From IMG/VR virus record IMGVR_UViG_3300032248_000908, positions 1 to 39,763 of that record: 39,763 nt of DNA; one strand, written 5' to 3'. Origin of the DNA: a virus. Its lineage: Duplodnaviria > Caudoviricetes. Within the stretch, counting starts at the first letter, position 1, and every line of letters begins with the position of its first letter. A program made the translations under genes and the position numbers. Positions 16,156-38,954 of the stretch are shown in pieces. The notes below the pieces were generated by a model, which did not search any database, was not told the origin of the DNA, and saw only the letters and a list, made by a program, of their open reading frames with translations.

Positions 16156-16539
16156 ATGGCGACCTTTGTTACAACTGGAGAAATAGAAACAGGCAATCAC
16201 CTGATACTAGAGCTTCACAGGATAAAAGCGGAGCACTTGAAAGACGAAGAATTTATTCGCAACTCTATGATTAAAGCTGCGCATGCTTCAAAGGCGACCA
16301 TACTACACACTTACTTCCATCATTTCGGTAATGAATACGGAGTCACCGGAATCATTGCTTTATCTGAATCTCATATGTCGATACACACGTGGCCAGAATA
16401 TAATTACGCAGCTGTAGATATATTTCTTTGTGGTTCAGCGGACGTCAACGCAGCAATGGAAAGTCTGTTGGCTTCGCTTAGTTGCACAAATTACAACAGC
16501 AATCCCTTAACAAGAAAAACATATCGAGTTAACACATGA
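16156..16539 (+). CDS. speD: S-adenosylmethionine decarboxylase proenzyme (class 1b)
   Basis: G.HLIL, GVTG...LSESHMSIHTWPE...AAVDIFLCG. Confidence 0.92.
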   Translation: MATFVTTGEIETGNHLILELHRIKAEHLKDEEFIRNSMIKAAHASKATILHTYFHHFGNEYGVTGIIALSESHMSIHTWPEYNYAAVDIFLCGSADVNAAMESLLASLSCTNYNSNPLTRKTYRVNT

Positions 16540-19995: not shown

Positions 19996-20001
19996 ATGAT
20001 C

Positions 20002-20205
20002 ATGGAAACCATCGCGTACGACTGCGTCGGCTTCAACCACAAGATGTCCCACGAAATGATGAACGATGTGTTCAGCAACCCTGAGAAGTATCTCTCGGTC
20101 GCCTTCTTGGCTATTGGGGCGCACACCGATTTGGTGCCGACCGTGGCTCTCGAGGCTCTCGTCTCGATGCTCCAGGTCGAGCTGCGCGAGCGCGACATCG
20201 CTTAA
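20002..20205 (+). CDS. Early hypothetical protein
   Basis: GAGGAG RBS best spaced to ATG 20002. Confidence 0.75.
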   Translation: METIAYDCVGFNHKMSHEMMNDVFSNPEKYLSVAFLAIGAHTDLVPTVALEALVSMLQVELRERDIA

Positions 20206-20212
20206 AAAGTCC

Positions 20213-20260
20213 TTGACTTTTAAATAATATAAAAGTATACTATACCTATAGTTGAGCTAA
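20213..20260 (+). promoter_or_regulatory. Early promoter cassette 4, TTGACT-N17-TATACT
   Basis: Leader ATACCTATAGTTGAGCTAA. Confidence 0.9.
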
Positions 20261-20272
20261 CGAGGAACTGTG

Positions 20273-20428
20273 ATGAAAAAAGTCTACTCTGTTGTGATTG
20301 ATGCTGACAGCTACTCTTGGACGGTTGGCGTGTTCGACGACCTCGACGAAGCCTACGCCGAGCGCGATGAGATGCAGTACTCGCAGCCCTGCCCAGTGTC
20401 TATCGTCGTTTCTTACGTTGAAGCTTAA
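20273..20428 (+). CDS. 51-aa acidic early protein (not in ORF track)
   Basis: GAGGA RBS; MKKVYSVVIDADSYSWTVGVFDDLDEAYAERDEMQYSQPCPVSIVVSYVEA. Confidence 0.75.
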   Translation: MKKVYSVVIDADSYSWTVGVFDDLDEAYAERDEMQYSQPCPVSIVVSYVEA

Positions 20429-20438
20429 GGAGAACATC

Positions 20439-20726
20439 ATGGAACAATTGTACGTTACAAATTACGTTCTCGAAATCAAACACGCTCTTGCCAACCGAGC
20501 TGCTGACGCCATGAACGTCAGTCGAGACAACCGGAGTGCTATGCAGTTCGTTAACGATGCTGCTGAGACGGTGATTTACGATTGGTTAGAATACCTCGAC
20601 TTCTCTAACCGCGAAGACTGTCTTGAAGTTGTCGCTCTAATCGAGAACGGGGCAACCCTCGGCGAAGACATGGTCGAGGCAGTAGAAAGTCAGATGTACT
20701 TCACCGGAACTATAAACCGTATTTAA
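20439..20726 (+). CDS. Acidic early hypothetical protein
   Basis: TAAGGAG RBS places the start at 20439, not 20298. Confidence 0.75.
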   Translation: MEQLYVTNYVLEIKHALANRAADAMNVSRDNRSAMQFVNDAAETVIYDWLEYLDFSNREDCLEVVALIENGATLGEDMVEAVESQMYFTGTINRI

Positions 20727-20733
20727 AAAATCC

Positions 20734-20781
20734 TTGACTTTATTTATTAAAAATAATATACTATATTCATAGTTGAGCTAA
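20734..20781 (+). promoter_or_regulatory. Early promoter cassette 5, TTGACT-N17-TATACT + leader
   Basis: Counted directly. Confidence 0.9.
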
Positions 20782-20792
20782 AGGAGAAGACC

Positions 20793-21044
20793 ATGAACTA
20801 CCGTAACGAAATCATCGACATGACCATCCGCTATGTCTCCCAGGAATACGATTTGCCAGCCGGTAGCCGCTTCCTGGCCAAGGCGGCTGAGGAAGTGACC
20901 GAGTACTGGTTCGAAGGCGACTTCGAGTTCGACTGCGGTATGGATGCGCAGGAAGCCGTGGGCGACTACGCTCTGGCCGAGCGAGTGATGTCGAAGTACT
21001 TTCAGCTCGAACACGAAGCCAACGTTCGCGGCGCAATGTTTTAA
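20793..21044 (+). CDS. Acidic early hypothetical protein
   Basis: AAGGAG RBS; D/E- and aromatic-rich. Confidence 0.8.
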   Translation: MNYRNEIIDMTIRYVSQEYDLPAGSRFLAKAAEEVTEYWFEGDFEFDCGMDAQEAVGDYALAERVMSKYFQLEHEANVRGAMF

Positions 21045-21054
21045 GGAGAACAAA

Positions 21055-21246
21055 ATGATTATCAAAGCCAAAATTGCAGGATTCCAGTTCGAGACCACTC
21101 TTGACTTGTTCTTTCTGGACAATCCCGGTCTTGACCGAGACAAAGACCTCTTAGCCGAAGAGCTGCGTCGGATGGGCGACGCTGTTCTTTATAACTTTAA
21201 CGACTCTTACGACGTCGCCTGCTTTCTTACTCTTATTGAGGAATAA
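21055..21246 (+). CDS. Acidic early hypothetical protein
   Basis: TAAGGAG RBS. Confidence 0.75.
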   Translation: MIIKAKIAGFQFETTLDLFFLDNPGLDRDKDLLAEELRRMGDAVLYNFNDSYDVACFLTLIEE

Positions 21247-21250
21247 TAAC

Positions 21251-21712
21251 ATGGGTCTTGATATGTACATGACTGGTCGCCGTTATCTTTCTGAGCATGA
21301 TAACAACGAAACCGTGCAAGCTGCGCGAACTGCTATCTCTAAAGCCATTCAGAAACTGGGCGCTCCGGCTGGCAGCAATGTGAGAACTGCCGACGTCGAA
21401 GTCGCCTACTGGCGCAAGGCAAATGCTGTGCACCGATGGATGGTTGAGAACATCCAGGATGGTCGAGATGATTGCGGAGAGTATTACTTCTCTACGACGA
21501 AGATGCAAGAACTTCTTGATGCTTGCTACGAGGTTCTTAGTGACTTCAACAAGGTAGAAGAAACGCTGCCGCCTACTAGCGGATTCTTCTTCGGCTCGAC
21601 TCAAGTCGATTACTTGTACTGGCAAGATATTGAGTACACTCGCGACCGTCTTATCGAATGTCTGAAGCCGGAGTACTCTAACTGGGAATTCTACTACCGA
21701 GCTTCCTGGTAG
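21251..21712 (+). CDS. Conserved phage protein (MGLDMY...YWRKAN family)
   Basis: GAGGA RBS; MGLDMY, YWRKANAVHRW, LPPTSGFFFGS, FYYRASW motifs. Confidence 0.8.
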   Translation: MGLDMYMTGRRYLSEHDNNETVQAARTAISKAIQKLGAPAGSNVRTADVEVAYWRKANAVHRWMVENIQDGRDDCGEYYFSTTKMQELLDACYEVLSDFNKVEETLPPTSGFFFGSTQVDYLYWQDIEYTRDRLIECLKPEYSNWEFYYRASW

Positions 21713-21741
21713 TTGACTTTTAAATAATAATAGATTATACT
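21713..21741 (+). promoter_or_regulatory. Early promoter 6, TTGACT-N17-TATACT (different leader)
   Basis: Counted directly; upstream of the DUF932 gene. Confidence 0.88.
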
Positions 21742-21777
21742 TTATTTGTAATTTGAAAAACACATTGGAGATATAAC

Positions 21778-22749
21778 ATGGCTCATATGGTTGAAGAAAT
21801 TAATGGTGTTGCTCAGATGGCTTATACCGGCGATGTGCCGTGGCATGGTCTGGGTAAACGTGTTAGCAACGACCTTTCCCCCGAACAGATGCTCGAAGCT
21901 GCTGGTCTTAACTGGGGTGTTGAGAAGGTTCCGCTCTTCGCCGATTATAACGGCAAGCAGATTCGAACTGGAGCTGAAGCTCTGGTCCGCGACCTTGATG
22001 ACAAGGTTCTTACCATTGTAACCGATACCTGGAATCCTTGCCAGAATCGCGATGCGTTCGAGTTCTTTAACGACTTTACCGCTGCTGGCGATATGGAAAT
22101 GCACACTGCTGGTTCGCTCAAAGGTGGTCAGCATGTCTGGGCTCTTGCTAAGATTAAAGAGTCATTCGAACTCTTTGGTGGAGACAAGGTGGACGGTTAC
22201 TTGCTGTTCTCTAATCCTCACCAGTTCGGTAAGAGCATTACCGTTCAGTTCACTCCTATTCGAGTAGTCTGCAACAACACTCTTACGCTGTCTCTCGGTA
22301 CCAAGACCGACAAGATGGTTAAGGTTAATCATCGTCGAGTGTTTGACGGAGACGACGTTAAAGAAACCCTCGGAGTGGCTAAGGACAAGCTTGCCAAGTA
22401 CAAGGAAATGTCTGCCTTCCTCGGTAAGAAGCTCTATACGCCTGCTACGCTTATCGAGTACTTCAATCAGGTCTTCCCCAAGACGTCTGATAAGAAGAAC
22501 GACAAGGACAAGATTGGTGTGCCTCAGTCTCGTGCGGCTGAACTCGCCATGGTTGCTGTTGATGCACAGCCTGGAGCGGAGTTCGCCAAGGGTAGCTGGT
22601 GGCAGGCATACAATGCTGTGACTTACCTGACTGACCATCAGCTCGGTCGTTCTACAGATACTCGTCTGTATAGCGCATGGTATGGCGTTAATCAGACTAA
22701 GAAAGTCCAGGCTCTTAACCTTGCTGTTCAGATGGCGGAGGCTGCATAG
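21778..22749 (+). CDS. DUF932 / TIGR03299 phage-plasmid-like protein
   Basis: MAH.VE, PWHGLG, QN..AF.FF, TAGSL.GG, TPIRVVCNNTL, W.AYNAVT. Confidence 0.9.
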   Translation: MAHMVEEINGVAQMAYTGDVPWHGLGKRVSNDLSPEQMLEAAGLNWGVEKVPLFADYNGKQIRTGAEALVRDLDDKVLTIVTDTWNPCQNRDAFEFFNDFTAAGDMEMHTAGSLKGGQHVWALAKIKESFELFGGDKVDGYLLFSNPHQFGKSITVQFTPIRVVCNNTLTLSLGTKTDKMVKVNHRRVFDGDDVKETLGVAKDKLAKYKEMSAFLGKKLYTPATLIEYFNQVFPKTSDKKNDKDKIGVPQSRAAELAMVAVDAQPGAEFAKGSWWQAYNAVTYLTDHQLGRSTDTRLYSAWYGVNQTKKVQALNLAVQMAEAA

Positions 22750-22787
22750 CCTCCCCTAATTATAACGCTGCAGAGCATAACAACAAC

Positions 22788-22833
22788 ACCCACGACGCCT
22801 CTCTATAGAAGCGCACCAGCGTGGGTTTCTTAA
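22788..22833 (+). promoter_or_regulatory. Bulged stem-loop with T-rich tail in the hps leader
   Basis: ACCCACG/CGTGGGT outer stem, CGCCTCT/AGAAGCG inner stem with one mismatch, CACCAG bulge; a second hairpin GGAGGCT/AGCCTCC at 22737-22754. Confidence 0.5.
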
Positions 22834-22851
22834 TCTTGAGGAAAGTAAATA

Positions 22852-23490
22852 ATGGCATTGATTCAAGCAGCACTCGATACTCTAGACTATGAACAAACAA
22901 TTCGTCTAGCACAGCGCATCTCACCCTATGTAGACATCATTGAACTCGGCACTCCCTGTGTCAAATATAATGGTATTCGTATCGTCGAAACAGTTCACAC
23001 GCTTACAGGTCCAAAGTGTTTAACACTTGCCGATCTTAAGACAATGGATGCTGGCTTATATGAAGCATCTCCATTCTACGAAGCCGGTGCTGATATTGTT
23101 ACCGTTCTTGGTGCAGCTGATGCTGGTACTATTAAGGGTGTAGTTGAAGCGTCTAAGACTACTAAAGCCCAAGCACAAGTTGATCTGATTAATGTAAAGA
23201 ATAAACTAGAAACTGTTGCTCTTGCGTATGAACTTGGCGCTCATATCATTGGTGTACATACTGGGCTAGATCAGCAGGCAAAAGGTCAGACTCCTTTTGA
23301 AGACCTAAAGAAAGTTCAGCAAATGAAAGTCGGTCTAAAGATCTCTGTTGCTGGTGGTATTAACAAAGATACCATTCGCCAAGCAATCGATGCTGGTGCT
23401 GATATTGTTGTAGTAGGTGCAGCAATCTATGGCGCCACTGATCCTGTTCGCGCTGCTGCTGAGATTTGGGAAGCTGTTCAACGTGGCTAA
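22852..23490 (+). CDS. hxlA: 3-hexulose-6-phosphate synthase (RuMP pathway)
   Basis: Q.ALD, ELGTP, DLKTMDAG.YEA, DLINV, GVHTGLDQQA.GQTPF.DL, SVAGGI, VVGAAIYGA.DP; methylotroph-type Hps signature. Confidence 0.95.
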   Translation: MALIQAALDTLDYEQTIRLAQRISPYVDIIELGTPCVKYNGIRIVETVHTLTGPKCLTLADLKTMDAGLYEASPFYEAGADIVTVLGAADAGTIKGVVEASKTTKAQAQVDLINVKNKLETVALAYELGAHIIGVHTGLDQQAKGQTPFEDLKKVQQMKVGLKISVAGGINKDTIRQAIDAGADIVVVGAAIYGATDPVRAAAEIWEAVQRG

Positions 23491-24049
23491 TTATTCTGAT
23501 GTTCTTGATATTTTAAGAGACGAACTGCTCTATACCGAAAAGGAAACATGTCAGCAGCTTATTGATGTACTCATTCATACGATAAGTCGGAAAGAACATT
23601 ATAATGGTGGAAGAGTGTTTATTGCTGCTGCTGGTAGATCTAAGATGGTTGCCAATATGTTTGCAATGCGAATGATGCATTGTGGGCTAAATGTGCAGGT
23701 AGTTGGAGAAACCACTACAACTCAGATAACAAGATTTGATTCGCTTCTTCTTGTTTCTGGTTCGGGTGAGACTAAGCAATTGATCAATTTTGCTGAGAAG
23801 GCAAAGTCGGTTCGTTCTGAAGTGTTATTAGTAACAGCAAATCCAACTTCTACTCTTAGGAATATGGCTGATAAGACTTTCCAGATTGGTCCATCAAGTA
23901 GAGTTCTATCTCCTAATAAAAATCTTCCTCTTGGTAGCAGGTTTGAACTCTCTACTATGATATTCTTTGAGACAGTCATTCTTAATTTTATGGAACAACT
24001 TCAATTAAATGAAGACAATTTAAGAAATTGTCATACTAATTTGGAATAA
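23483..24049 (+). CDS. hxlB: 6-phospho-3-hexuloisomerase (SIS domain)
   Basis: RVFIAAAGRS, FAMRMMH.G, VGETTT, SGSGET, PLGSRFE, terminal HTNLE (canonical HANLE); GTG start overlapping the hps end. Confidence 0.92.
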   Translation: MANYSDVLDILRDELLYTEKETCQQLIDVLIHTISRKEHYNGGRVFIAAAGRSKMVANMFAMRMMHCGLNVQVVGETTTTQITRFDSLLLVSGSGETKQLINFAEKAKSVRSEVLLVTANPTSTLRNMADKTFQIGPSSRVLSPNKNLPLGSRFELSTMIFFETVILNFMEQLQLNEDNLRNCHTNLE

Positions 24050-24056
24050 ATAAATA
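24045..24056 (+). promoter_or_regulatory. Overlapping late promoter variants AATAAATA upstream of tmRNA
   Basis: AATAAATAAATA immediately before the acceptor piece. Confidence 0.55.
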
Positions 24057-24061
24057 GTATT

Positions 24062-24430
24062 GTTGGTATGGTCGTATGAAGTAAAGGGAAGGTATTCTGG
24101 ACGGGAGTGCGATTCTCCCCACCTCCACCAAAAGCATATTGTAAATATGATGCTGTCGAAGCACACTGGTTCAGCAATCAATAAATGTTTCGTGAGTATG
24201 CTTTTGACGGGGGTGACTAGATTCGACAGGGTAAGATACTGATACAGACGACTCGGTAGGCGATGACCGTAAATCAAGCAAAAAAATATAAAAGCCAATG
24301 ATGACTTTTACGGAGATTATGCACTAGCTGCATAATTCTTCTGGGGTTTCGCCAGCTGTCCTTATTATCCAATCAGCTGGCACTTATTTACGGAGTTTGG
24401 CGGTAACTTCTCCGACACCAAAAACCGCAA
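24062..24430 (+). ncRNA. ssrA: Circularly permuted two-piece tmRNA
   Basis: T arm GGGAG-TGCGATT-CTCCC + CACCTCC-A-CCA ending 24130; 78-nt intervening segment; GGGGGTG-ACTAGATTCGAC from 24209 gives a 7-bp acceptor stem with G3:U70; tag GCC 24294-TAA 24335 = ANDDFYGDYALAA. Outer ends approximate. Confidence 0.93.
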
Positions 24431-24445
24431 CCTATAAGGAGCTAT

Positions 24446-24694
24446 ATGCGCATAGACCCACGGTATTCAATTCAGGCAGTGCAACCGACCTATACGGTTC
24501 CTAAAGTAGCAGAGACCAAAGTCGCCGAGATGCAGGTGCAGCATTTTGCAGCCATCATCAATCCTGACCTTTCCGTATCAATTAAGAATATCATTGATGA
24601 CTTCTATACGTATGATCATCTGAACGGCAAGATTGTAATGAAGAAGGTAATCTGCCGAATCAACTCCACCACATTCAAACCAATAGATGCGTAG
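24446..24694 (+). CDS. Hypothetical protein
   Basis: TAAGGAG RBS. Confidence 0.65.
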   Translation: MRIDPRYSIQAVQPTYTVPKVAETKVAEMQVQHFAAIINPDLSVSIKNIIDDFYTYDHLNGKIVMKKVICRINSTTFKPIDA

Positions 24695-24787
24695 GTGATT
24701 ATGAAATCATTTTTATCATTCCTAAGATTTATCCTAGAAGTTGTGAAGAATAAATACAAGAGTACATTCACTAACGGAGAAAACAAC

Positions 24788-25120
24788 ATGGCTGATACAG
24801 AAGCAACCAATCGCTTTGGTAATCTACTGCAAACGATGCAGGATAACCGCTGGAAAATTACGCTAATCAATCTAGGCACATTTGCTCTATTGATTCTTGG
24901 TATCCTATTGGCGATTGTAGTTCAAACACCAGTGGCTTCTGAGTGGAAAGAACTCTTGCTTCTTCTACTTGGTGCTTTTATTGGTAACTATAACAAGACA
25001 GCAGAATTCTGGTTCTCTAACGAAGACCGCGATAAGCTATTAGTCCAGAAGATGGACGAAGAAGACGATGCTCCAGGCACCGCAAAAGCAGAAGTTGATT
25101 TAAAATCTAAAGCAAAGTGA
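24788..25120 (+). CDS. Two-TM membrane protein (holin-like candidate)
   Basis: AATAAATA at 24749-24756 and GGAG RBS favour ATG 24788; two hydrophobic segments, charged tail. Confidence 0.65.
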   Translation: MADTEATNRFGNLLQTMQDNRWKITLINLGTFALLILGILLAIVVQTPVASEWKELLLLLLGAFIGNYNKTAEFWFSNEDRDKLLVQKMDEEDDAPGTAKAEVDLKSKAK

Positions 25121-25127
25121 GGATAAC

Positions 25128-25304
25128 ATGACTGATAAGAATTACAAAATGAACAAAGCGACTAAGATTATGCTAGCATCAATTCATGATGATGAGTATA
25201 GAGGCACGTTTAAAAATCTATTTAAAGACGCCGAAAGTCATTCCGCTCATGCCAGAAAGAAAATGGCAGTGAAGGGTATGCCGAAGGCGGAAACAGAAGA
25301 CTAA
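25128..25304 (+). CDS. 58-aa basic hypothetical protein (not in ORF track)
   Basis: GAGGA RBS; MTDKNYKMNKATKIMLAS... Confidence 0.7.
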   Translation: MTDKNYKMNKATKIMLASIHDDEYRGTFKNLFKDAESHSAHARKKMAVKGMPKAETED

Positions 25305-25468
25305 GGTCCGCTACCGCCTCCTCCACCGCCGGAGCTACCGCTCTTGCCTGGAGGATGGCTTTCTAACTTACCATTAGCCATACGAATCTTTACGTTCTTG
25401 ACGGTAATTAGCTTACCAAAACCGTCGCGTACACGAAGCTCTGATATTAGTTCTTTAAATGATTTCAT
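25301..25468 (-). CDS. 55-aa peptide with capsid-targeting-like N-terminus and Gly/Ser tail (not in ORF track)
   Basis: ATGA overlap with the HAD gene; MKSFKELISE...KIRMANGKLESHPPGKSGSSGGGGGSGP. Confidence 0.7.
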   Translation of the reverse strand: MKSFKELISELRVRDGFGKLITVKNVKIRMANGKLESHPPGKSGSSGGGGGGSGP

Positions 25469-26106
25469 TTGTATACCGTTGTTGTTATTTTGGCTTGCCC
25501 TGTATCATGGTCGTAGTCGACGTGATGAGCATGTAGTTCTACATCAGGATGATCTTCTTTTAAACTAGCGAAGGCAGCTAGATTGGCTTTAGAGTCATCG
25601 TAAAGATGTACTTTCTTGTAACCATGCTTTTTAATCAGTGCGCTCAATACTGCTCGCTTGGCTTCTGGTGGCGGCAATCCTAAGTTACCCGCTCTACGAA
25701 CGTGAATCTGATTAGCATCAATCCCATGCTTGCCGAGTTCATTCATAAAACCTTCTTTGTCGTCAAAGTCAGATCTTGCAGTAAGCACTTCAACGTTTTT
25801 ATTATTTTTATGAATGGCTTTAAGTTTACGGATGAGTGGATGAATAGGTGAAGCAGTCTGTCCGAACAACTTTGACGAACGAAACTCGCTGAAGTCGTAT
25901 TTGTGTCCAGGCTGAAGTTTATGGTTGTTAAACTCTTGGTTAGAAAGAGACTGAACCCTGTTCCCGTTTTCATCGTTCACGTGTATACGTAATTTTGATG
26001 GGTCATAGGTAAACAGGGTTTCGTCCATATCGAATGAGTGGAGTGTCTTAGACTTCGGGTCTTTACGCTCTTCCTCTTCGATAAGGTAGTCTCTAAATTT
26101 AAGCAT
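25465..26106 (-). CDS. HAD-superfamily phosphatase (RNA-repair-like HAD)
   Basis: FDMDETLF (DxD), VLTARS, K, LYDDS..NL motifs; MLKFRDYLIEE N-terminus. Confidence 0.82.
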   Translation of the reverse strand: MLKFRDYLIEEEERKDPKSKTLHSFDMDETLFTYDPSKLRIHVNDENGNRVQSLSNQEFNNHKLQPGHKYDFSEFRSSKLFGQTASPIHPLIRKLKAIHKNNKNVEVLTARSDFDDKEGFMNELGKHGIDANQIHVRRAGNLGLPPPEAKRAVLSALIKKHGYKKVHLYDDSKANLAAFASLKEDHPDVELHAHHVDYDHDTGQAKITTTVYK

Positions 26107-26284
26107 CGGTCGCCTTCTTTGTGGTCTTCTTTGCTGTTGTTTTCTTTGGGGCAGCTTTAGCTTTCTTCACAGGCACTTCAGGAACGGGTTCTGGAACTGG
26201 CTCTGGTGCTGGCGGAACTACGGGTTCTGGCTTATCGCAGAAGAGCTCTTTTATCTTAGAAACTAAATAATCTACCATGAACAT
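26099..26284 (-). CDS. Small Pro/Lys-rich protein
   Basis: AAGGAG RBS overlapping the pqqA stop; PEPV repeats and histone-H1-like K/A/T tail. Confidence 0.7.
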   Translation of the reverse strand: MFMVDYLVSKIKELFCDKPEPVVPPAPEPVPEPVPEVPVKKAKAAPKKTTAKKTTKKATDA

Positions 26285-26294
26285 AATATGCTCC

Positions 26295-26366
26295 TTAACG
26301 ATTGGCTATGTACATTGTGACTTCGAAACCAAATCTAACATCTTCAAATGCAGGTGTATTCCACAT
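26295..26366 (-). CDS. pqqA: PQQ precursor peptide PqqA (not in ORF track)
   Basis: Hand translation MWNTPAFEDVRFGFEVTMYIANR; W..P....R.GFEVTMY with the invariant ExxxY; AAGGGGG RBS. Confidence 0.95.
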   Translation of the reverse strand: MWNTPAFEDVRFGFEVTMYIANR

Positions 26367-26422
26367 AAATCCCCCTTAAATTCTTAGTTGTATGTGGTTG
26401 CTTTTTTAGGCAACTTGTAGTA

Positions 26423-26430
26423 TACTTATA
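26423..26430 (-). promoter_or_regulatory. Late promoter variant TATAAGTA upstream of pqqA
   Basis: One mismatch to consensus; the same variant precedes the gp48-like gene. Confidence 0.45.
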
Positions 26431-26530
26431 TAAACTTATTCGTTAGATATATCTAGCGGTGTTTCGCTCTGTTGCGAAAACCAATGGAAGCTTTGTCTTC
26501 CGTTGTCCAAACAAAAAGAGGAAATAACCT

Positions 26531-27169
26531 ATGGACAGCAATAAACAGGTAAAACTTACACTAGCCATAACTTGGATTTCTATGGCAATAATTCTCTTCG
26601 GAGCTGCAGAGGGTGCTAAAATAAAGCTTGATGCAATCCAGTTGACGGAATTAAAACAACAGCGTATAATAAAGAAAGCGCATGAAGCAAAGATTCCAGT
26701 AGAAGACCCTGCTGAATCTCTAGACGAAGTAGATTACAAAGAAATATCTTGTCTTGCTCAAAACATGTATTTTGAGGCTAGGAACCAATCTGATGAAGGA
26801 TTGCTAGCTGTTGGGTTCGTTACGATTAACAGAACCAAAGAAGACAAGTTTTCTAAGACAATCTGCGGTGTGATTCATGAAGCTGAATTCTATCCGAGGA
26901 AAAACAAGAAAGGTGTAGACGTTCCTATCAAAGGAAAATGCCAATTCTCTTGGTACTGTGATGGAAAGAAAGATGTCATCAATGATCAAGACACCTGGGA
27001 CCATGTATACAATCTTGCCTATCATCTATATCTATATCATGATATAATGGCAGACCTAACTGTAGGAGCAACGTACTATCATACCAAGGAGTCTAAAATA
27101 AAAGTGCACCGAGATGCGGTGAAGACAGTTTCCATTCAACGACACGTGTTTTTTAAAACAGAAGGATAA
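26531..27169 (+). CDS. SleB-like cell wall hydrolase (Hydrolase_2) with N-terminal TM/signal
   Basis: CLAQNMYFEARNQ, V..V.INR, TICGVI, CQFSWYCDGK, GATYYH, HVFFK. Confidence 0.92.
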   Translation: MDSNKQVKLTLAITWISMAIILFGAAEGAKIKLDAIQLTELKQQRIIKKAHEAKIPVEDPAESLDEVDYKEISCLAQNMYFEARNQSDEGLLAVGFVTINRTKEDKFSKTICGVIHEAEFYPRKNKKGVDVPIKGKCQFSWYCDGKKDVINDQDTWDHVYNLAYHLYLYHDIMADLTVGATYYHTKESKIKVHRDAVKTVSIQRHVFFKTEG

Positions 27170-27170
27170 T

Positions 27171-27404
27171 ATGGAAGAGTTAAATATAAAGTCGCCATTA
27201 GAGTTCGCAAAAGAAATTGAAGACCTTGTTTGGCAACATGACATTGAGTATATTGATGCTGTGGTTTTTTATTGTGAGAAAAACAATATTGAGATTGAAA
27301 CAGCAGCATCATTGATTAAGATGAATGACCACGTTAAGAGTAAAGTTCAATCAGAAGCAGAAGCATTACACTACCTACCTAAGATAGCGAGGCTCCCTCT
27401 ATGA
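27171..27404 (+). CDS. 33: Late transcription coactivator (gp33-like)
   Basis: FAKEIE...YIDAVV.YCE.N.IEIE.AA.LI...K.K...EA..L..L; synteny with 59 and 32. Confidence 0.9.
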   Translation: MEELNIKSPLEFAKEIEDLVWQHDIEYIDAVVFYCEKNNIEIETAASLIKMNDHVKSKVQSEAEALHYLPKIARLPL

Positions 27405-28000
27405 CTGGATACGACGCCTATGTTCTCTACTGTGCGATGAAGAATCATTTCTTTACAGAAAATTACGACTTCGTCAAGTACAACGGAAAAGTAAAGGTTA
27501 CTGTAGAGTCATATGAAAATCGTAAAGACAGATTCTATTTTGAAAAGTTAGCAAAGCGTAAAGATTGTAAAGAGTTTCTGATTGCCAACTTTGTGGCTAT
27601 GAACGGTCGCATGTGGGTTGGTGAGATGATTAACAATGAAGTGACTGAACGAGCCTACATGGACTGGAAGCGCAGGACTCAGGCGCTAGGATACAACTTT
27701 GAAGAAGACTTAAAAAAGTTGTTGACTAATTTAGACGAAAACCTTATAATTAACGAATCACAGCATCCTTACTTGCTGAAGATGTTCCTACGGAAGAAAA
27801 TCTCTATGGAGACGCTAGTGATACTAGAAGACCTGTTAGGATTTTTCGCTCAGTGGAATCGTAAGTTGAAGAACGATATCATCTGGAAGGAAATACATGA
27901 CATGTGTTTGAAGTATCGTTCGTTTCTATATTATGATAAACAACGAATGAAAGCTGTCGCGAGGAAAGTCTTTGACAGCGAACATTCAAATGCGGCATAA
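27401..28000 (+). CDS. 59: Helicase loader (gp59-like)
   Basis: Y.A.K.HF....YDF.KYNGK, RKDRFYFEKL, ISMETL. Confidence 0.92.
   Translation: MTGYDAYVLYCAMKNHFFTENYDFVKYNGKVKVTVESYENRKDRFYFEKLAKRKDCKEFLIANFVAMNGRMWVGEMINNEVTERAYMDWKRRTQALGYNFEEDLKKLLTNLDENLIINESQHPYLLKMFLRKKISMETLVILEDLLGFFAQWNRKLKNDIIWKEIHDMCLKYRSFLYYDKQRMKAVARKVFDSEHSNAA
27722..27750 (+). promoter_or_regulatory. Sigma70-type promoter TTGACT-N17-TATAAT inside gene 59, facing gene 32
   Basis: Near-perfect consensus with 17-nt spacer. Confidence 0.7.
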
Positions 28001-28020
28001 TAAATATAACGTTATTATGC
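27995..28020 (+). promoter_or_regulatory. Late promoter variant AATAAATA (27999-28006) within a 9-bp inverted repeat
   Basis: GCATAATAA...TTATTATGC. Confidence 0.55.
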
Positions 28021-28081
28021 TATTCGTGGACAATACAAATATACTACTATACAAACATACGAAAATATACGGAGAAATACT

Positions 28082-28984
28082 ATGGCAGATTTTGCATCAC
28101 TCAAGCGTTCGCGTCAAGAAAGCTTAACCAAACTAACCGACCAAGTTAAGAAGCTAACCTCTAACGAAACATCATCTTCTTCTGATGATCGTTTCTGGTA
28201 TCCTAACGTAGATAAAGTCGGCAATGGCTTTGCTGTTATTCGGTTCCTACCCGCCCCTGTTAATGAAGACGTTCCTTTCGTTCGTCTTTGGGAACATTCG
28301 TTCAAGGGACCGTCTGGTAAGTGGTACATTGAGAACAGTCTAACGACTATCAACAAGACCGACCCTGTTAGCGAGTATAACACTCAGCTATGGAACAGCA
28401 CCACCGATGATAACTCTCCTGCCCGTAAACAGGCTCGAGACCAGAAGCGTAAGTTGACCTACATCTCCAACGTCTATATCGTTAAAGACCCTGCTAACCC
28501 TGAGAACGAGGGTCGGGTTAAGCTTTTCCGATTCGGTAAGAAGTTGTTCGACAAACTCAACGAAGCGATGAATCCTCGTTTTGAAGACGAGAAGCCAATC
28601 AATCCTTTTGACTTCTGGGACGGCGCTAACTTCAAGATTAAGATTCGTCAGGTAGAAGGTTATCGCAACTACGACAAGTCTGAGTTTGCTGACTCTGAAC
28701 CGCTAATGAACGATGACGATGATCTAGAGGCGATTTGGAAGAAGGAATACTCTCTTCAGGAGTTCGTGAATCCCAGTAACTTCAAGGACTACGACACTCT
28801 TAAGAAGAAGCTAAACGCTGTTCTAGGACTCGGTACAACGGTCTCTGAGGACGTAGAAGAGCTTCCGGTAGTTGAAGCACCCAAGCCCAAGGCGAAGGTT
28901 GCTAAGATGGAAGAAGAGTCTTCTCCTTGGTCTAGCGAGGACGATGACGACCTTTCGTACTTCAAACGTCTAGCGGATGATTAG
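28082..28984 (+). CDS. 32: Single-stranded DNA-binding protein (gp32-like)
   Basis: DDRFW, GNGFAVIRFLP, WYIENSLTT, KRKL.Y..N, NPFDFWDGANFK.KI, acidic tail. Confidence 0.97.
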   Translation: MADFASLKRSRQESLTKLTDQVKKLTSNETSSSSDDRFWYPNVDKVGNGFAVIRFLPAPVNEDVPFVRLWEHSFKGPSGKWYIENSLTTINKTDPVSEYNTQLWNSTTDDNSPARKQARDQKRKLTYISNVYIVKDPANPENEGRVKLFRFGKKLFDKLNEAMNPRFEDEKPINPFDFWDGANFKIKIRQVEGYRNYDKSEFADSEPLMNDDDDLEAIWKKEYSLQEFVNPSNFKDYDTLKKKLNAVLGLGTTVSEDVEELPVVEAPKPKAKVAKMEEESSPWSSEDDDDLSYFKRLADD

Positions 28985-28994
28985 CCGCTAGTTT

Positions 28995-29020
28995 AGGGGA
29001 GCTTCGGCTCCCCTTTTTTT
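28995..29020 (+). terminator. Rho-independent terminator with UUCG tetraloop
   Basis: AGGGGAGC-TTCG-GCTCCCCT followed by a T run, at a convergent gene junction. Confidence 0.95.
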
Positions 29021-29237
29021 ATGGGCGAGAAGCAAACTTCTCTGCGCCAGAGAATCCCAATCCTGCTATAACGATATCTCTGATGGTTGTGTAGATAGGT
29101 TCATCTACTTTCATACCGTAAAATAAATTACAAAAAACGATAACGAAGAAGAACACCGTACATATCATTGTAACCACTCTCTTAGAAGAAGGGTTGCCGT
29201 CGACGTCGAGCAGCATCTTGTAGAAGAACTCTTTCAT
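29019..29237 (-). CDS. Small two-TM membrane protein (SSKR motif, holin-like candidate)
   Basis: GNPSSKRVVT then two hydrophobic segments; TAATG coupling. Confidence 0.7.
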   Translation of the reverse strand: MKEFFYKMLLDVDGNPSSKRVVTMICTVFFFVIVFCNLFYGMKVDEPIYTTIRDIVIAGLGFSGAEKFASRP

Positions 29238-31486
29238 TATGCAAAGCTCGGTATACCCATCTTATCGAAGATATTAAAGTATACAGCATACTCATCTTCT
29301 TGTGAATATGGGTGCGCTGGCGCTGGCGTTTCGAATTGTGTAGAAGGCGCAGCAGGTTGTTTCGCTGGAGTGTTCATCGCTATTACTGTTGGTGCTGTAG
29401 GAGCAGGCGTAGCGGGAGTTGCCGCTGGAGGAGCAGCTGGTGCCGGTGCTGTCGGTGTTGCCGGAGTGGCTGATGCTGGTGCTGTCGGATTTTTTTCTGC
29501 CAATGATGCTGCTGTCGGATTTTTTTCTGCCAATGATGCTGCTGTGTTTATTCTCAATTGTCTATGTTTACCTTTAGATCTTTCATAACTTTGATCAACT
29601 GTTGCAGCTGCGGTTAAAGCATCTTCCGTTTTCCTAATAGCATTTCCTGCTTTTTTCTCAGTGTTGTTTAACTCCCAATTAACGAACTCTAATTGTTCTT
29701 GTACGGTTGATTCTCTAATATCTTTACCATACTGTTTCTTGAAGTCAGCTTGTCTGTCTGGATGCCACTGGGCTATACCGTAAGCTTCTCCCTTATCGCC
29801 CAAAGCGTTAGCTGATAAATTACTTTCAATCATTAAATTGGCTACGATACCGGCAGCTTGTTCTTTAGACCATCCTTTATCTACAAAAAACTTAATGGCT
29901 TCATCGCTGGAAGCATTCCCAGGACGACCTTTTCCAGTAACAGTAGGTTTATCTGTAACCATTCCGCCCAGTTTTTTAGCGGTGGAAAGACTCTTTAATT
30001 GTTCTGCATTATATAGATTTTCGGGCACTTGTGTTCCGTTAATAGAAACAGGTATACCACCTTGAAATTTTGCTTCATATTTTTCACCTATATCTATCCC
30101 CATTTTTTTTGAAAATTCTTTTACTAACCTATCTTTACGTTCAATACTCGATTCATCTTCGTCTTTAACCTGCTCAACATCGGGCGATAGGGGTTCCTTT
30201 TCGTCTTTAACCTGCTCAACATCGGGCGATAGGGGTTCCTTTTTTATACCTAACAGGTTGTTTATAAATCCACCGATTCCGGCGATGTCTTCTGTTTTTT
30301 CTGCTTGTATTTTGGCATATTCTGCATCATCTCTAATAACGTCGCTACTTCTAGAAGTATGCAATTTTGCCCGTTCAACTAACGTTTCAATAAATTTCTT
30401 TTGGAATTCTTTGGTATGTCTTTCTAAAAATATCTTTTGTACTACTGGGTTGTTCCTATATTCTACAGGTAATCCTTCAACATTTGTACCAGAGATTACA
30501 GAATCTATTTTATTATTTTGAGTTTTTTCGTACGCTTTTGCTACTTCGGGAGTTAACTGTTCCCCTCGTGCGGTTTGCCATTCAGCTTGACTCATCTGAA
30601 GTTCAGATAACGTACCATTTTTAGCGAGTGTTTGACCAGCGTATTGTTTTGGACGAGTGTCTTTGCTCTTCCGGAATAACATGGCGGTCAATCCAGCAGC
30701 AAAGGTTTTCAAAAAATCCATTAATGCGTCTTTAGCGGTTCCTTTTATTCTTTCAACCGTAGCACTTTTTCTTTTTACTGGAGATATATTTCCGTCAGCG
30801 CCTTCTTCAGCTTTTGCGATCGCCATAGAATCATATATTTTTTGATTTAATTCTAACTGCTCTCTAGAGATATTCTTTACTTGCGTAATTTCTGTGAGCA
30901 ATTTAGATACTATAGAGTTAAGGATATCTAACTTCTTTATTATCACAGTAAACGGACTATCTTTTAGAGTAGATTCTACTTCGTCTCTTTTGACGGATTT
31001 ACCTTCTCTACCGAGCCACCAGCCTTGTGAAGTTATTCCTTCGGAGCGCAGTATAGACATCTCTAGTGGGTTGTATCCGGCAGCTCCGCGTGCTCTCTTG
31101 GCGGTCTCGCCTAATCCACCACCGCCACCACTACTCTCTGTTGCAGCTCCTCCTCCGCCTTCTCCTCCTCCTCCCATCATCTCACCTGCTCGATATGCTA
31201 TATCGAGCGCACCTGCTTTTTTTGCTAGTGAACCTACTTTTTTTGCCCCAGAGACAACTCTAGAAAGAGTTCCTAAACCACCTACGACTTCTGCACCTAC
31301 GCCTAAACCACCTGCGACTTCCGCTGCTGCGCCTACACCTGCGCCTACACCTAATAGCGGCAACCAAATCTCTGAAGTGGCTACGAGAGCAGTAGCAGCA
31401 GCAACGCCTACACCTATTGCTGCAAGTTTTTCTCCGGTAGACCAGCCTTCTTCTTGGGTGTTCTCTTCGTTGGTATCGTCAGCCAT
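29237..31486 (-). CDS. Tape-measure/hub-like protein with phage tail lysozyme domain
   Basis: Helical, N-terminal hydrophobic G/A stretch; GWSKEQAAGIVANLMIES...AYGIAQW...R (Phage_lysozyme2-like); position between gp51 and gp32. Confidence 0.75.
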   Translation of the reverse strand: MADDTNEENTQEEGWSTGEKLAAIGVGVAAATALVATSEIWLPLLGVGAGVGAAAEVAGGLGVGAEVVGGLGTLSRVVSGAKKVGSLAKKAGALDIAYRAGEMMGGGGEGGGGAATESSGGGGGLGETAKRARGAAGYNPLEMSILRSEGITSQGWWLGREGKSVKRDEVESTLKDSPFTVIIKKLDILNSIVSKLLTEITQVKNISREQLELNQKIYDSMAIAKAEEGADGNISPVKRKSATVERIKGTAKDALMDFLKTFAAGLTAMLFRKSKDTRPKQYAGQTLAKNGTLSELQMSQAEWQTARGEQLTPEVAKAYEKTQNNKIDSVISGTNVEGLPVEYRNNPVVQKIFLERHTKEFQKKFIETLVERAKLHTSRSSDVIRDDAEYAKIQAEKTEDIAGIGGFINNLLGIKKEPLSPDVEQVKDEKEPLSPDVEQVKDEDESSIERKDRLVKEFSKKMGIDIGEKYEAKFQGGIPVSINGTQVPENLYNAEQLKSLSTAKKLGGMVTDKPTVTGKGRPGNASSDEAIKFFVDKGWSKEQAAGIVANLMIESNLSANALGDKGEAYGIAQWHPDRQADFKKQYGKDIRESTVQEQLEFVNWELNNTEKKAGNAIRKTEDALTAAATVDQSYERSKGKHRQLRINTAASLAEKNPTAASLAEKNPTAPASATPATPTAPAPAAPPAATPATPAPTAPTVIAMNTPAKQPAAPSTQFETPAPAHPYSQEDEYAVYFNIFDKMGIPSFA
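29481..29540. repeat. Perfect 30-nt tandem duplication (in frame)
   Basis: GCTGTCGGATTTTTTTCTGCCAATGATGCT x2. Confidence 0.95.
30159..30242. repeat. Perfect 42-nt tandem duplication (in frame, KEPLSPDVEQVKDE x2)
   Basis: Read directly. Confidence 0.95.
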
Positions 31487-31658
31487 TTTGCTCTTTCTTA
31501 CTCTCTATGTAATCGTTTAACATTGACACGTATATATCTCTTTCGAATGGGATGAGGTTTTCTAAATCGTCAATTGAATAGTGATAATGTTGTGCCATAG
31601 AAAAGATTGTAGAATAATAATTGGACAAGCTGTTATGGTTTAGGCAAAGGAAAAAAAA
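31479..31658 (-). CDS. 51: gp51-like frame (baseplate hub assembly catalyst/chaperone); first ATG at 31598, frame open from 31658
   Basis: NHNSLSNYYSTIFSMAQHYHYSIDDLENLIPFERDIYVSML fits the gp51-like family; not in ORF track. Confidence 0.85.
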   Translation of the reverse strand, partial: FFFLCLNHNSLSNYYSTIFSMAQHYHYSIDDLENLIPFERDIYVSMLNDYIESKKEQNG

Positions 31659-32362
31659 TCATTTAACGTTGTCAGTTCGATTTCTCTCACTGTCCCCATC
31701 GAGTTAGTGTACTCTATTTTATGGTAAAGAGTTGGCATCGTTGCGAAAAACTTTTGAATCTCTTCAAACGGTTTAATGCTTAACGAATCGATAAACTCAT
31801 CTACTTCCTTTGGATCGCTTTCTTTGACTATGTAAACCTCATCAGCATCGTAGATCTTTTCCATACACTCTTTTATTAACGTATTGGTAACGTCTTCTTC
31901 ACCCATGGTATCGACGTTTAACTTACCCATAAGCTCTGCTGTAGGGTATTTCATTATCACGCCAATATCATCTGACACTTTAATCTTGTTAGTGTGTTCT
32001 GGGTTATACTTGATGTTTATCTCATTCAAGTCTATCTTGAACTCATAGTTCTTTTTGTCTTCATGGTCGATATATTTTAGAGTGACAATATTGTCGACCG
32101 ATTTAGCTCTAATCTTTACGAACAAGTATTCAATATCAAACGTAGTTAAAGCTGTTTCATCTATATCGCTTCCATCCTGATAGATGCAGCAATTATTGAT
32201 AACCTGTTTGAGCGCATTAATCATTTCTTTTCTACTGTTTCCCTGCTGCGCTATAAGAAGAATCTTTTCTTCTTTGACAAGGAATGGTCTGTATTTTATA
32301 GGTTTGTTGGTTGATGGTATAACTTCATCAAACAAAGGAACCGTCAGTTTCGGTAAAGGCAT
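31640..32362 (-). CDS. 26: Baseplate hub subunit/assembly protein (gp26-like)
   Basis: MPLPK, IPST...KYRPFLVKEEKILL.A, FDIEYLF..IRAKSV, MKYP, FF.TMP.L. Confidence 0.92.
   Translation of the reverse strand: MPLPKLTVPLFDEVIPSTNKPIKYRPFLVKEEKILLIAQQGNSRKEMINALKQVINNCCIYQDGSDIDETALTTFDIEYLFVKIRAKSVDNIVTLKYIDHEDKKNYEFKIDLNEINIKYNPEHTNKIKVSDDIGVIMKYPTAELMGKLNVDTMGEEDVTNTLIKECMEKIYDADEVYIVKESDPKEVDEFIDSLSIKPFEEIQKFFATMPTLYHKIEYTNSMGTVREIELTTLNDFFSFA
31651..31658 (-). other. Candidate -1 ribosomal frameshift slippery site (U8)
   Basis: GAT TTT TTT TCC at the 3' end of the gp26-like gene; the -1 frame opens right after a TGA at this site and runs into gp51. Confidence 0.65.
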
Positions 32363-32396
32363 TTATCTCTCCTTAAATTATGTTGTCAAATCGATG

Positions 32397-33041
32397 TTAT
32401 TCTTGTGCTGTGGGGGACGGATATTGTCCTCCAGGTAGATTTTCAGTATTGGTGTTAGTGTCTGTTCCTCTAGTCTCATCGTATTGAGATATACTATAAT
32501 CAGTATATGAGAATGTTACAGGGAGTCTAAGGAGTTGATCGTTAAGTCCCCATCCTAGTTGTATAGATCCTATCTGTTTAGCAAAACAATCTCTAAAATT
32601 GTACTCAGTTATTTGATCTTCTTTTTCATTGTATATTTTTACTTTTAAATCAAAAATATAATTTTTTTTATACTCAATTTCATAAGGATAAGCGCCAGTA
32701 AGTGTTTTGCCATTAATACTAGGATATCCCATAAAGTTAGCTATATTAGTCAGCTCACCGAGCATCGTTGTTAAAGAATTTGTATCGGTAGCTTCTACCA
32801 TAAAATCTATGCTTAACGATGTAAACACTGGACGGAAAACATATTGATCAGAAGGACCATAACCATATCTATGGATAGTCGAGGTTTCTAGCTCTATCGC
32901 GGGTAGTGTTACAGATTCTGTGTAAAACTTCAATGTCTGACTATCAAGTCTCTTAGGGGAAAAATAAACCTCATACAGATTACTCTTTACTAATCCGTTT
33001 TTTAATACTTGTCCTTTGAAATCGGCGATACTAAACGGCAT
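32397..33041 (-). CDS. Tail-tube-fold protein (gp54/gp19-like)
   Basis: G....N.YEV, ESVTLP, IQLGW, LPVTFSY; position next to gp2 and gp26. Confidence 0.7.
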   Translation of the reverse strand: MPFSIADFKGQVLKNGLVKSNLYEVYFSPKRLDSQTLKFYTESVTLPAIELETSTIHRYGYGPSDQYVFRPVFTSLSIDFMVEATDTNSLTTMLGELTNIANFMGYPSINGKTLTGAYPYEIEYKKNYIFDLKVKIYNEKEDQITEYNFRDCFAKQIGSIQLGWGLNDQLLRLPVTFSYTDYSISQYDETRGTDTNTNTENLPGGQYPSPTAQE

Positions 33042-33643
33042 TACCTTCTACCTTTGTTAACCATTCTTGTTGAGTCTCTCCAGACCTGAGTAGATGTTGC
33101 TTTCTGGAATCTCTGTACAGGTAAGAATAAAGCAATATCCCATTCTACAGGTACAATGGCTATAAACTTAGATCTAACATGATCAGAAAGATATCTCTTT
33201 ATACAAGGCGCGATATACTTATTGGTCGCAGCGTTATTCAATATGCTATACGATATCTTTAGTTTGGTGTTGTCATCAAGCTTTGGATCGCTAACATACG
33301 CATACAATAAGTCCATGAGCTTGGCTCTTAGTACATAAGGAAGATAATGAAGGTTTAACCCAAGAAACCCATCAGGGAGTTTTTTGATCGGAAAGATCAG
33401 AGGAAAGGTGTCATAGTAAGGTAGGTCTGCTTTGGTCTTCGGGTCATAGGAAAAGAGGAACATTTTCCCTACCTCTAACCTGTTTGTCAGGGCTTCTCTG
33501 GACTGTAGAAGCTTACCCTCGGTCACGCTACGTGTTTTCTTAGCGGTGTCTCTAAACCACTCTCTCGCCTCCTGCGTCCTTCCAGGAATCTGATTGCTTC
33601 TAACGCCATCGGCTAGAATCTTATCGAAGAGTGCAACTGCCAT
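33041..33643 (-). CDS. 2: DNA end protector protein (gp2-like)
   Basis: YDPKTK..LPYYD.FPL, GLNLHYLP, KRYL..HV.S. Confidence 0.95.
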   Translation of the reverse strand: MAVALFDKILADGVRSNQIPGRTQEAREWFRDTAKKTRSVTEGKLLQSREALTNRLEVGKMFLFSYDPKTKADLPYYDTFPLIFPIKKLPDGFLGLNLHYLPYVLRAKLMDLLYAYVSDPKLDDNTKLKISYSILNNAATNKYIAPCIKRYLSDHVRSKFIAIVPVEWDIALFLPVQRFQKATSTQVWRDSTRMVNKGRR

Positions 33644-34063
33644 TTATTTACCGTAAATCTCTTTTTCTGTTAGTATTTGAAACCTATACCCTCGATCCTT
33701 GCAGTATTCTTCAGCAGCTTTCCATTTAGCTTGGTTAACAGCGTAGGTTACAGCTTCGTTAATAAATGCTTTGGTCTTTTTCTTCGGAGCCACAGGTTGT
33801 AACGTTTGCTGGTAAGGTTTAACCTCTACTACAATGGTCTGATTCTGTTTATTTTTAATTACAAAATCCGGAAAGTATCTGTGTATTCTATTATCAACAG
33901 GAGACCGATAAGGTATAATGAGCTCTTCGCTCGCCCAACCAACAATCTCAGTATTCTTGTCAAAGTAGATCATCATGTCCAGTTCCCACTTCGACCTATA
34001 AATAATGTTGGTTGGGTTACCCAAATACTTCTGTGGATTTTTAGGTTGAAATTTACCCTTCAT
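33644..34063 (-). CDS. 4: Head completion nuclease (gp4-like)
   Basis: KGKF.PKNP.KY.G, YRS.WE, WASEE, HRYFPDF, EVKP, NQAKW.AA; start at ATG 34063. Confidence 0.95.
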   Translation of the reverse strand: MKGKFQPKNPQKYLGNPTNIIYRSKWELDMMIYFDKNTEIVGWASEELIIPYRSPVDNRIHRYFPDFVIKNKQNQTIVVEVKPYQQTLQPVAPKKKTKAFINEAVTYAVNQAKWKAAEEYCKDRGYRFQILTEKEIYGK

Positions 34064-34070
34064 AATTCTA

Positions 34071-34098
34071 TATAAGTATTGCAATAATCTTATTTATA
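34071..34098. promoter_or_regulatory. Face-to-face late promoters serving the divergent genes 4 and 48
   Basis: TATAAATA on minus strand at 34091-34098; TATAAGTA on plus strand at 34071-34078. Confidence 0.65.
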
Positions 34099-34107
34099 AG
34101 GAAAGGT

Positions 34108-35265: not shown

Positions 35266-35270
35266 CGTAT

Positions 35271-38307: not shown

Positions 38308-38316
38308 GGATATATC

Positions 38317-38949: not shown

Positions 38950-38954
38950 AGGTC

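Follow-up and report, generated by a model that had tools for sequence, protein, structure and literature searches.

A pqqA–hps–phi gene cassette in T4-like lake phages and its predicted role in one-carbon metabolism of the host

Cyanophages carry pentose-phosphate auxiliary metabolic genes (AMGs), namely talC, zwf, gnd and cp12, and a few phages are now associated with the metabolism of one-carbon (C1) compounds. Two T4-like phages from Lake Baikal, VP_139 and VP_266, assigned to Methylophilaceae, carry a methanol dehydrogenase gene and pqqA, the latter a proposed AMG that would raise methanol oxidation to feed the synthesis of nucleotides (Coutinho et al. 2020, PMC7678222), while large freshwater ‘pmoC-phages’ carry a gene of C1 oxidation (Chen et al. 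2020, PMC7674155). In addition, K08093 and K08094 (hxlA and hxlB) were listed side by side on one 150-kb viral operational taxonomic unit (vOTU) from freshwater mesocosms (PMC12370912, Nat Commun 2025), and hxlB alone appears in two vOTUs of a cattle-gut preprint (10.1101/2025.05.24.655612). Here, we analysed the viral record IMGVR_UViG_3300032248_000908 (Duplodnaviria; Caudoviricetes), of which positions 1 to 39,763, i.e. the whole stretch of 39,763 nucleotides, are called the window hereafter. It encodes Hps and Phi, two enzymes of formaldehyde fixation, near pqqA, the gene for the precursor peptide of pyrroloquinoline quinone (PQQ).

The window phage resembles VP_139 and VP_266 in being a T4-like freshwater phage with pqqA, but differs from them in encoding Hps and Phi, in that no dehydrogenase was found, and in having a PqqA of non-Methylophilaceae type; the word ‘hexulose’ is absent from the text of PMC7678222. 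The pmoC-phages share with it pqqA (in 6 of 17) and a permuted tmRNA (in 6 of 10 records, L564-L569), whereas they act on methane oxidation with a gene close to the host copy; ‘hexulose’, ‘hxl’ and ‘pqq’ do not occur in the main text of PMC7674155. The 150-kb vOTU may well belong to the same phage group as the window, although PMC12370912 gives, in the part consulted, a listing of orthology numbers that covers neither host nor phylogeny, pqqA, tmRNA or mobility. As with the cyanophage AMGs, T4-like phages would here keep host central-carbon genes for pentose and NADPH, yet Hps/Phi would bring in new carbon instead of redirecting stored carbon. The sequence-only reading, which knew of no such three-gene set in a phage, must be narrowed, as phage pqqA (PMC7678222) and adjacent hxlA/hxlB (PMC12370912) are published. 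Nonetheless, no description of a linked pqqA–hps–phi cassette, of its phage-only clade or of its mobility was found in a literature in which subscription papers were sparsely covered. Mention of hps or phi in a phage is likewise absent from the accessible portions of PMC9875498, PMC10904782, PMC8506154, PMC9004378, PMC7674155, PMC13518059 and PMC13748632, and from that of 10.1101/2024.02.06.579183, whose AMG tables could list hxlAB.

Genes were called at curated NCBIfam cut-offs in a profile scan of the open reading frames (ORFs) of the window. Hps scores 229.4 bits (TIGR03128, cut-off 200), Phi 163 (TIGR03127, cut-off 160, a narrow margin) and PqqA 47.8 and 41.8 (TIGR02107, cut-off 20; PF08042, cut-off 21.1). 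The best PDB sequence matches of Hps are 3ajx, 9lj9 and 3f4w (E-values of 1e-40 to 1e-36), with KGPDC far behind, and the same three HPS structures are the top Foldseek matches (TM-score 0.89-0.92) of its AlphaFold2 model (pLDDT 93.5). The protein is an OMPDC-superfamily barrel in which the Mg ligands, the D-x-K-x-x-D motif and His136 are retained (metal and catalytic residues E31, D61, K63, D66 and H136). Its D111, L139 and A167 correspond to KGPDC positions 112, 139 and 169, which we take to decide specificity, and are of the HPS type (D/L/A rather than E/R/T), like those of 1xbx, a triple mutant of KGPDC. The PDB title of 1xbx names KGPDC E112D/R139V/T169A with bound ribulose-5-phosphate; a literature search for these mutations found none. 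Mis-annotation of a KGPDC or OMPDC as hps was ruled out by the KGPDC models UlaD and SgbH, which reach 85-110 against cut-offs of 250-294, and also by residues and fold. Phi aligns end to end with YckF of Bacillus subtilis (1m3s), which is among its best PDB matches with AF1796 and MJ1247, and its SIS domain shows the GRS, VGE, SGSGET and C-terminal H-x-N-L-E motifs when aligned to 1m3s. The identities first proposed for Hps and Phi are thereby borne out, since cut-offs, HPS-type residues and fold agree. The gene pair is intact, its active-site residues being kept, and dN/dS values of 0.059-0.221 (hps) and 0.067-0.243 (phi), for 15 pairs each among six phage copies, indicate that both genes are under purifying selection. 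As for PqqA, a single match to its pattern exists in the window, against none in 60 shuffles; its residues E15 and Y19 form the Glu-x3-Tyr motif, and the gene has a ribosome-binding site rich in purines. None of pqqB-E was found among the 58 window ORFs scanned, pqqA being an orphan copy; PqqA must therefore rely on host enzymes.

The three genes do lie within 3.5 kb of a T4-like genome, as first described, with gp33, gp59, gp32, the baseplate genes gp53, gp5 and gp25, nrdA/B and thyX as T4-like flanks. Their description as one module stands for identities and linkage, but less well for layout, as pqqA is inverted and 2.2 kb away from phi, with a tmRNA and six small ORFs between; this tmRNA and an RNA hairpin ahead of hps had been overlooked. 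Being distant and on the opposite strand, pqqA does not form one transcription unit with hps and phi in this phage. The intervening ORFs, one of which (213 aa) is polynucleotide-kinase/HAD-like, fall outside C1 function as far as tested, and are found in the same order in the IMG/VR contig L011.

Two scans of IMG/VR returned the same six Hps loci, to which a Phi scan added L011, and a metagenome scan (25 of 64 parts) yielded 75 loci kept, eight of them at 70% or above and counted as phage-clade. Judging from these sequences, the usual form among relatives is a pqqA–hairpin–hps–phi–tmRNA cassette, of which the window is a rearranged version. Indeed, pqqA precedes hps by approximately 90 bp in four of the six IMG/VR loci (L001, L002, L003 and L006, where L002 and L003 are near-copies) and lies immediately upstream of it in all eight phage-clade metagenome loci (L328-L330 being near-copies). 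It is approximately 24 kb from hps in a fifth IMG/VR locus (G003), and was not found on the 13.9-kb fragment G004. The pqqA–hps–phi spacing remains at approximately 90-170 bp across unrelated backbones and deeply differing hps/phi alleles, and the permuted tmRNA follows phi in most relatives long enough to show it. Set against the some 2,300 stretches with pqqA that are estimated, from 4 of 64 IMG/VR parts, for 2.9 million viral contigs, these data support a non-random linkage of hps/phi and pqqA. In L328-L330 and L332, pqqA and hps are separated by an extra element of approximately 75 nt; it has a tRNA-like T-loop, and ARAGORN does not call it. In L006 and L331 an S-adenosylmethionine decarboxylase gene immediately precedes pqqA.

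The cassette also moves between phages. The Hps and Phi of the window are 94-96% identical to those of G001 and G005, for nrdA identities of 22-23%, thyX of 56-59% and gp32 of 56% (G005), whereas they are only 69-72% identical to those of G004, for core genes at 75-88%. Cassette identity is thus at odds with core-gene identity, and the cassette is exchanged among phages. In L328-L330, a Hps at 92% is paired with a Phi at 50%, and in L331 a Hps at 72% with a Phi at 90%; hence hps and phi are exchanged separately too. Finally, the pair can be lost, as seen from a deletion in G046 (154,777 bp, 81% complete), where pqqA, hairpin and tmRNA are kept, hps is gone and the last 23 codons of phi are left. 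This deletion (L309 1531-1610) is clean, and its two sides meet at a short AT-rich word that both have in common.

Of the 71 loci kept, almost all place the nearest cellular Hps, at 57-62% identity, in Methylophilaceae, Methylococcaceae or Methylophaga; phage and cellular Phi share 33-48%. In a protein search, about 59 organism-less clusters at 64-95% precede the first named cellular matches (Methylophilaceae, 60-62%). When positions 20001-39763 of the window were searched for CRISPR and prophage matches in 251 Methylophilaceae genomes (best two candidates per genome), the 150 matches listed were all hps, at 65-78%; over long stretches, hps of these genomes is at most approximately 71% identical to phage hps. 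Trees were built with cellular rows that are a subset of the top Hps matches from 31 of 64 genome-collection parts, and with a long-branch outgroup. In the Hps tree, phage sequences form one clade (98/93) without any cellular member, and phage Phi fall outside the 33 methylotroph rows of the Phi tree, indicating that phage Hps/Phi constitute a phage-only clade. A search for Hps in cultured phages gave 12 records, none of them above 41% or in this clade; entered under Staphylococcus, Salmonella, Escherichia and Enterococcus, they look like host contigs. No PHROG for Hps was found. Compared with the cellular hxlA–hxlB of ribulose monophosphate (RuMP) methylotrophs (Methylococcaceae, Methylophaga and Methylophilaceae), the phage genes show the same fold, residues and gene order, but overlap, sit behind a hairpin leader and form a separate clade. 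On the cellular side, a Truepera (Deinococcota) metagenome-assembled genome, L012, has a Methylophilaceae-type hps–phi, through either transfer or bin contamination.

A chimeric join with host DNA, which would have refuted the sequence-only reading, was ruled out. The independent contig L011 repeats the order phi, tmRNA, small ORFs, pqqA on the minus strand, SleB, gp33, gp59 and gp32 at 63-99% identity. In sequencing run X1, perhaps the sample of origin, two contigs (21000-24283 and 24254-28500) agree with the window at every position, at a depth of 11-12. A contig of a second sample of the same study (X2) spans 24355-28500. The phage origin of the region, as first assumed, is hence upheld. 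In lake-water runs of two other studies, X5 and X6, 29 and 28 of 30 bins were covered.

The biosynthesis of PQQ, the cofactor of methanol dehydrogenase, uses the Glu and Tyr residues of PqqA. Formaldehyde enters the RuMP cycle through Hps, to be assimilated or, via 6-phosphogluconate, oxidized for NAD(P)H. We consider it likely that the cassette is expressed in infection and keeps C1 flux going in a methane- or methanol-oxidizing host, probably a Methylococcales-like methanotroph. One PqqA would be consumed per PQQ by the host PqqB-E, so that a further gene copy would keep the methanol dehydrogenase of the host supplied with PQQ and making formaldehyde. Hps would then join formaldehyde to ribulose-5-phosphate, and Phi would convert the product to fructose-6-phosphate. 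In a RuMP host, this step would carry all of the net pentose that goes into phage DNA, together with the dissimilatory-cycle NADPH for ribonucleotide reductase and ThyX. The pair would also remove formaldehyde as an aldehyde that crosslinks DNA and protein and that would go on forming after host gene expression has stopped. Consistent with peptide supply being limiting, pqqA is present in 2-9 copies in most Methylophilaceae and Methylophaga, with a single copy in Methylococcaceae (39 of 40 genomes match). The earlier suggestion that the phage boosts both supply and assimilation of formaldehyde is sustained as regards gene identity and linkage, and we infer forward fixation as the best reading. 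In OM43 and Methylotenera, transcription of cellular hps is among the highest of all genes (PMC5120137, PMC3728764). In both metatranscriptomes examined, one from a river and one from a lake, contigs 85-97% identical to phage hps/phi were detected, including the hps–phi junction, and these are phage-type because hps of the 251 Methylophilaceae genomes does not exceed about 71% over long stretches. A gap in RNA coverage at 25267-28278 carries no weight, as relatives have different backbones.

Regarding the host, PqqA type and the PstS of the large relative G003 point to Methylococcales-like methanotrophs over Methylophilaceae. This PstS matches 19 of 60 genomes, namely 13/13 of Methylococcaceae type and 4/4 of Methylophaga type (60-71% identity over both groups), one unplaced gammaproteobacterium, none of 18 Methylophilaceae and one of 23 other Burkholderiales. 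The PqqA of nine cassette phages score, as best of 22 positions, 9-15 with Methylophilaceae, 12-17 with Methylococcaceae and 13-18 with other Burkholderiales, the latter selected by pattern, and in all nine the Methylococcaceae score exceeds the Methylophilaceae score. PqqA type tends to follow the host: phage P19250A has the exact peptide of its host family, the Methylophilaceae, and of 120 viral pqqA sampled, 107 differ from that peptide at no more than three residues, while pmoC-phages G430 and G431 have a Methylococcaceae-like PqqA. G046 PqqA matches that of pmoC-phage G432 at 17 of 22 positions, and a phage-like PqqA pattern occurs in 25 of 301 Burkholderiales (including the unpublished genome G307, which enters no other claim than the tmRNA count below). 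Taken together, we would give a Methylococcales-like host about an even chance, a Methylophilaceae host a clearly smaller one, and slightly less to either a PQQ-dehydrogenase host without RuMP or any other host. Besides, unannotated pqqA was noticed in nine cultured Methylophilales phage records, from P19250A, MEP301, Venkman, MEP401/402 and Melnitz, with an open frame and ribosome-binding site confirmed for P19250A and Melnitz; in the part of PMC7678222 consulted, P19250A is described as devoid of these AMGs.

Several observations weigh against the proposal of a cassette expressed in a Methylococcales-like methanotroph. The RNA evidence consists of contigs only, without a DNA control, which cannot prove transcription. 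The absence of hps and most of phi from G046 makes the pair dispensable, and pqqA of the window is decoupled from hps–phi. Neither tree shows a nested cellular donor, and a candidate sister group of phage Hps, Methylococcaceae with Methylophaga, receives 69/54, Methylophilaceae not being rejected (p-AU 0.26). The PstS evidence comes from G003, a different and larger phage, and Dps of the window matches 0/12 Methylococcaceae and 7/14 Methylophilaceae, weakly, at 34-44%; Dps was dropped as a host marker, this identity being too distant. An inspection of the window for pmoC, tal and tkt, as had been suggested, revealed none of them, and neither pmoC nor a PQQ dehydrogenase was found in five relatives (fragments, one of them 81% complete). 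Likewise, hps is present in none of 80 viral pmoC loci, three of which have pqqA adjoining pmoC.

A first alternative is that the host has a PQQ alcohol dehydrogenase but no Hps/Phi, the phage installing formaldehyde assimilation de novo and making a C1 assimilator, during infection, of a cell that oxidizes C1 compounds for energy only. Hosts would then be abundant lake betaproteobacteria that oxidize methanol but have no route to assimilate formaldehyde, on which the cassette imposes methylotrophy, a virus adding a carbon-fixation pathway, and this would account for a Hps/Phi clade without cellular member. No cellular donor exists within 38% divergence of phage Hps, in contrast with the pmoC-phage gene, more than 90% identical to the host copy (PMC13518059), and with the P19250A PqqA, identical to its host-family type. 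Moreover, the best score of the window PqqA (18 of 22) is with non-Methylophilaceae Burkholderiales, in which a PQQ alcohol dehydrogenase was found in 21 of 24 genomes and Hps in none (positive control: 3/3 methylotrophs), and the tmRNA scores as betaproteobacterial-type, a clearly permuted tmRNA being present in 3 of 151 Burkholderiales genomes and Hps in none of these three. However, the 24 genomes were chosen by the phage-peptide pattern, so that the match is circular, whereas Methylococcaceae reach 17 of 22 unselected. In addition, permuted tmRNA is common in pmoC-phages and hence carries no host information, G003 PstS matches just one of 23 such genomes, and net assimilation would also need a suitably tuned regeneration of ribulose-5-phosphate. 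We therefore regard both this scenario and such hosts as unlikely.

Bacillus and Staphylococcus use hxlAB to detoxify formaldehyde, and Hps/Phi might accordingly only shield replicating phage DNA, with no meaningful gain of carbon or NADPH. The phage has the two entry enzymes only, with no tal, tkt, zwf or gnd seen in the window or in scanned ORFs of relatives. Nevertheless, a tight linkage to pqqA would raise, not lower, formaldehyde, the closest cellular homologues are assimilatory methylotroph enzymes, and removing and assimilating formaldehyde are one and the same reaction for a RuMP host, all of which makes this explanation rather improbable. Less probable still is that pqqA and hps–phi are independent add-ons at a common insertion hotspot beside the tmRNA, with no joint function. 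Although pqqA alone is very common in viral contigs, can adjoin pmoC, is inverted and separated in the window, and stays when hps–phi is deleted, the constant order and spacing across unrelated backbones and deeply differing alleles speak against it, and even so both would mark a PQQ-using C1 host. Last, the reactions being reversible, the sequence-only reading had raised an archaeal-like flux from fructose-6-phosphate to ribulose-5-phosphate and formaldehyde, for ribose and for methylene-tetrahydrofolate to ThyX; thyX and nrdAB do lie 5-9 kb upstream (thyX ends 9,136 bp before hps, in line with the 9 kb that had been noted), but thyX, the sole specific support, is a routine T4-like gene also present in G046, which is without hps, the linkage is to pqqA, the equilibria lie far on the side of fixation as long as formaldehyde is not removed by a scavenger, and this flux would be futile in a C1-grown host whose fructose-6-phosphate itself comes via Hps, so that we set it aside as very improbable.

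Coordinates of these and the other features are gathered in table 1. The two RNA elements deserve a separate description. The tmRNA of the window scores 142.2 bits with RF04321 (gathering score 47) and 116 bits with RF01850, and its tag, as called by ARAGORN, is ANDDFYGDYALAA, ending in LAA. A permuted tmRNA passes the cut-off in 0/40 methylotroph genomes and 7/151 Burkholderiales genomes (including G307), and was dropped as a host marker, since pmoC-phages often have one when methylotroph genomes do not. The hairpin precedes hps in five of the six IMG/VR loci, and no cellular hps among 272 loci searched. It occurs in 44 viral IMG/VR stretches (L273-L316), mostly ahead of unrelated genes, and both unconstrained stem positions pair in all 27 distinct sequences, in eight combinations (counted as sequences, not events). 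It thus appears to be a general phage leader that is not C1-specific, and possibly an undescribed motif. Its match to the abiF RNA RF03085 (24.6 bits, E 0.024) is below the gathering score of 37, and no abiF gene was found beside the window hairpin; abiF RNA is described from an antitoxin and from a T4-like cyanophage. A sigma-70 scan gave 12 sites for 12.0 expected, and no T4 late TATAAATA was found before hps. Lastly, G003 encodes, besides PstS, a phosphate porin, CsgG/CsgF, superoxide dismutase, ClpS, an adenylate cyclase domain and a ubiquitin-family protein.

Table 1. Positions of the features discussed, in window coordinates unless another locus is named.
Feature	Position	Strand	Remarks
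hps (hxlA/rmpA), 3-hexulose-6-phosphate synthase, 212 aa	22852-23490	+	TIGR03128
phi (hxlB/rmpB), 6-phospho-3-hexuloisomerase, 188 aa	23483-24049	+	TIGR03127; GTG start overlaps hps stop
pqqA, PQQ precursor peptide, 23 aa	26295-26366	-	TIGR02107, PF08042
Permuted (two-piece) tmRNA gene	24038-24426	+	ARAGORN, RF04321, RF01850
RNA hairpin leader, then U-rich run	22786-22826	+	25 nt ahead of hps start
Six small ORFs	24446-26284	+ and -	82, 141, 58 aa on +; 55, 213, 61 aa on -
thyX (context only)	13054-13716	+	TIGR02170, 154 against cut-off 87.9
Dps/ferritin-like gene	3471-3977		
S-adenosylmethionine decarboxylase gene	16156-16539		
G003 extra genes	L085 14577-16940; L086 15492-16847; L087 4000-4419		
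Cultured Methylophilales phages with pqqA			KX815270.1, MW452941.1, MT375522.1, OP830906.1, OP830907.1, MZ577095-8; L562, L563

To the phage genes of methane (pmoC) and methanol (xoxF, pqqA) oxidation already known, this cassette adds the entry step of carbon assimilation. Its Hps/Phi appear as an old, selected and phage-specific lineage spreading between lake phages, which could serve as a marker for phages that infect uncultured C1 bacteria, and the divergent pair is a candidate for trials of synthetic methylotrophy. The cultured Methylophilales phages, for their part, are systems in which phage pqqA could be tested. If the cassette is expressed, infection would shift the split of methane and methanol carbon in lakes between that respired and that fixed into viral particles.

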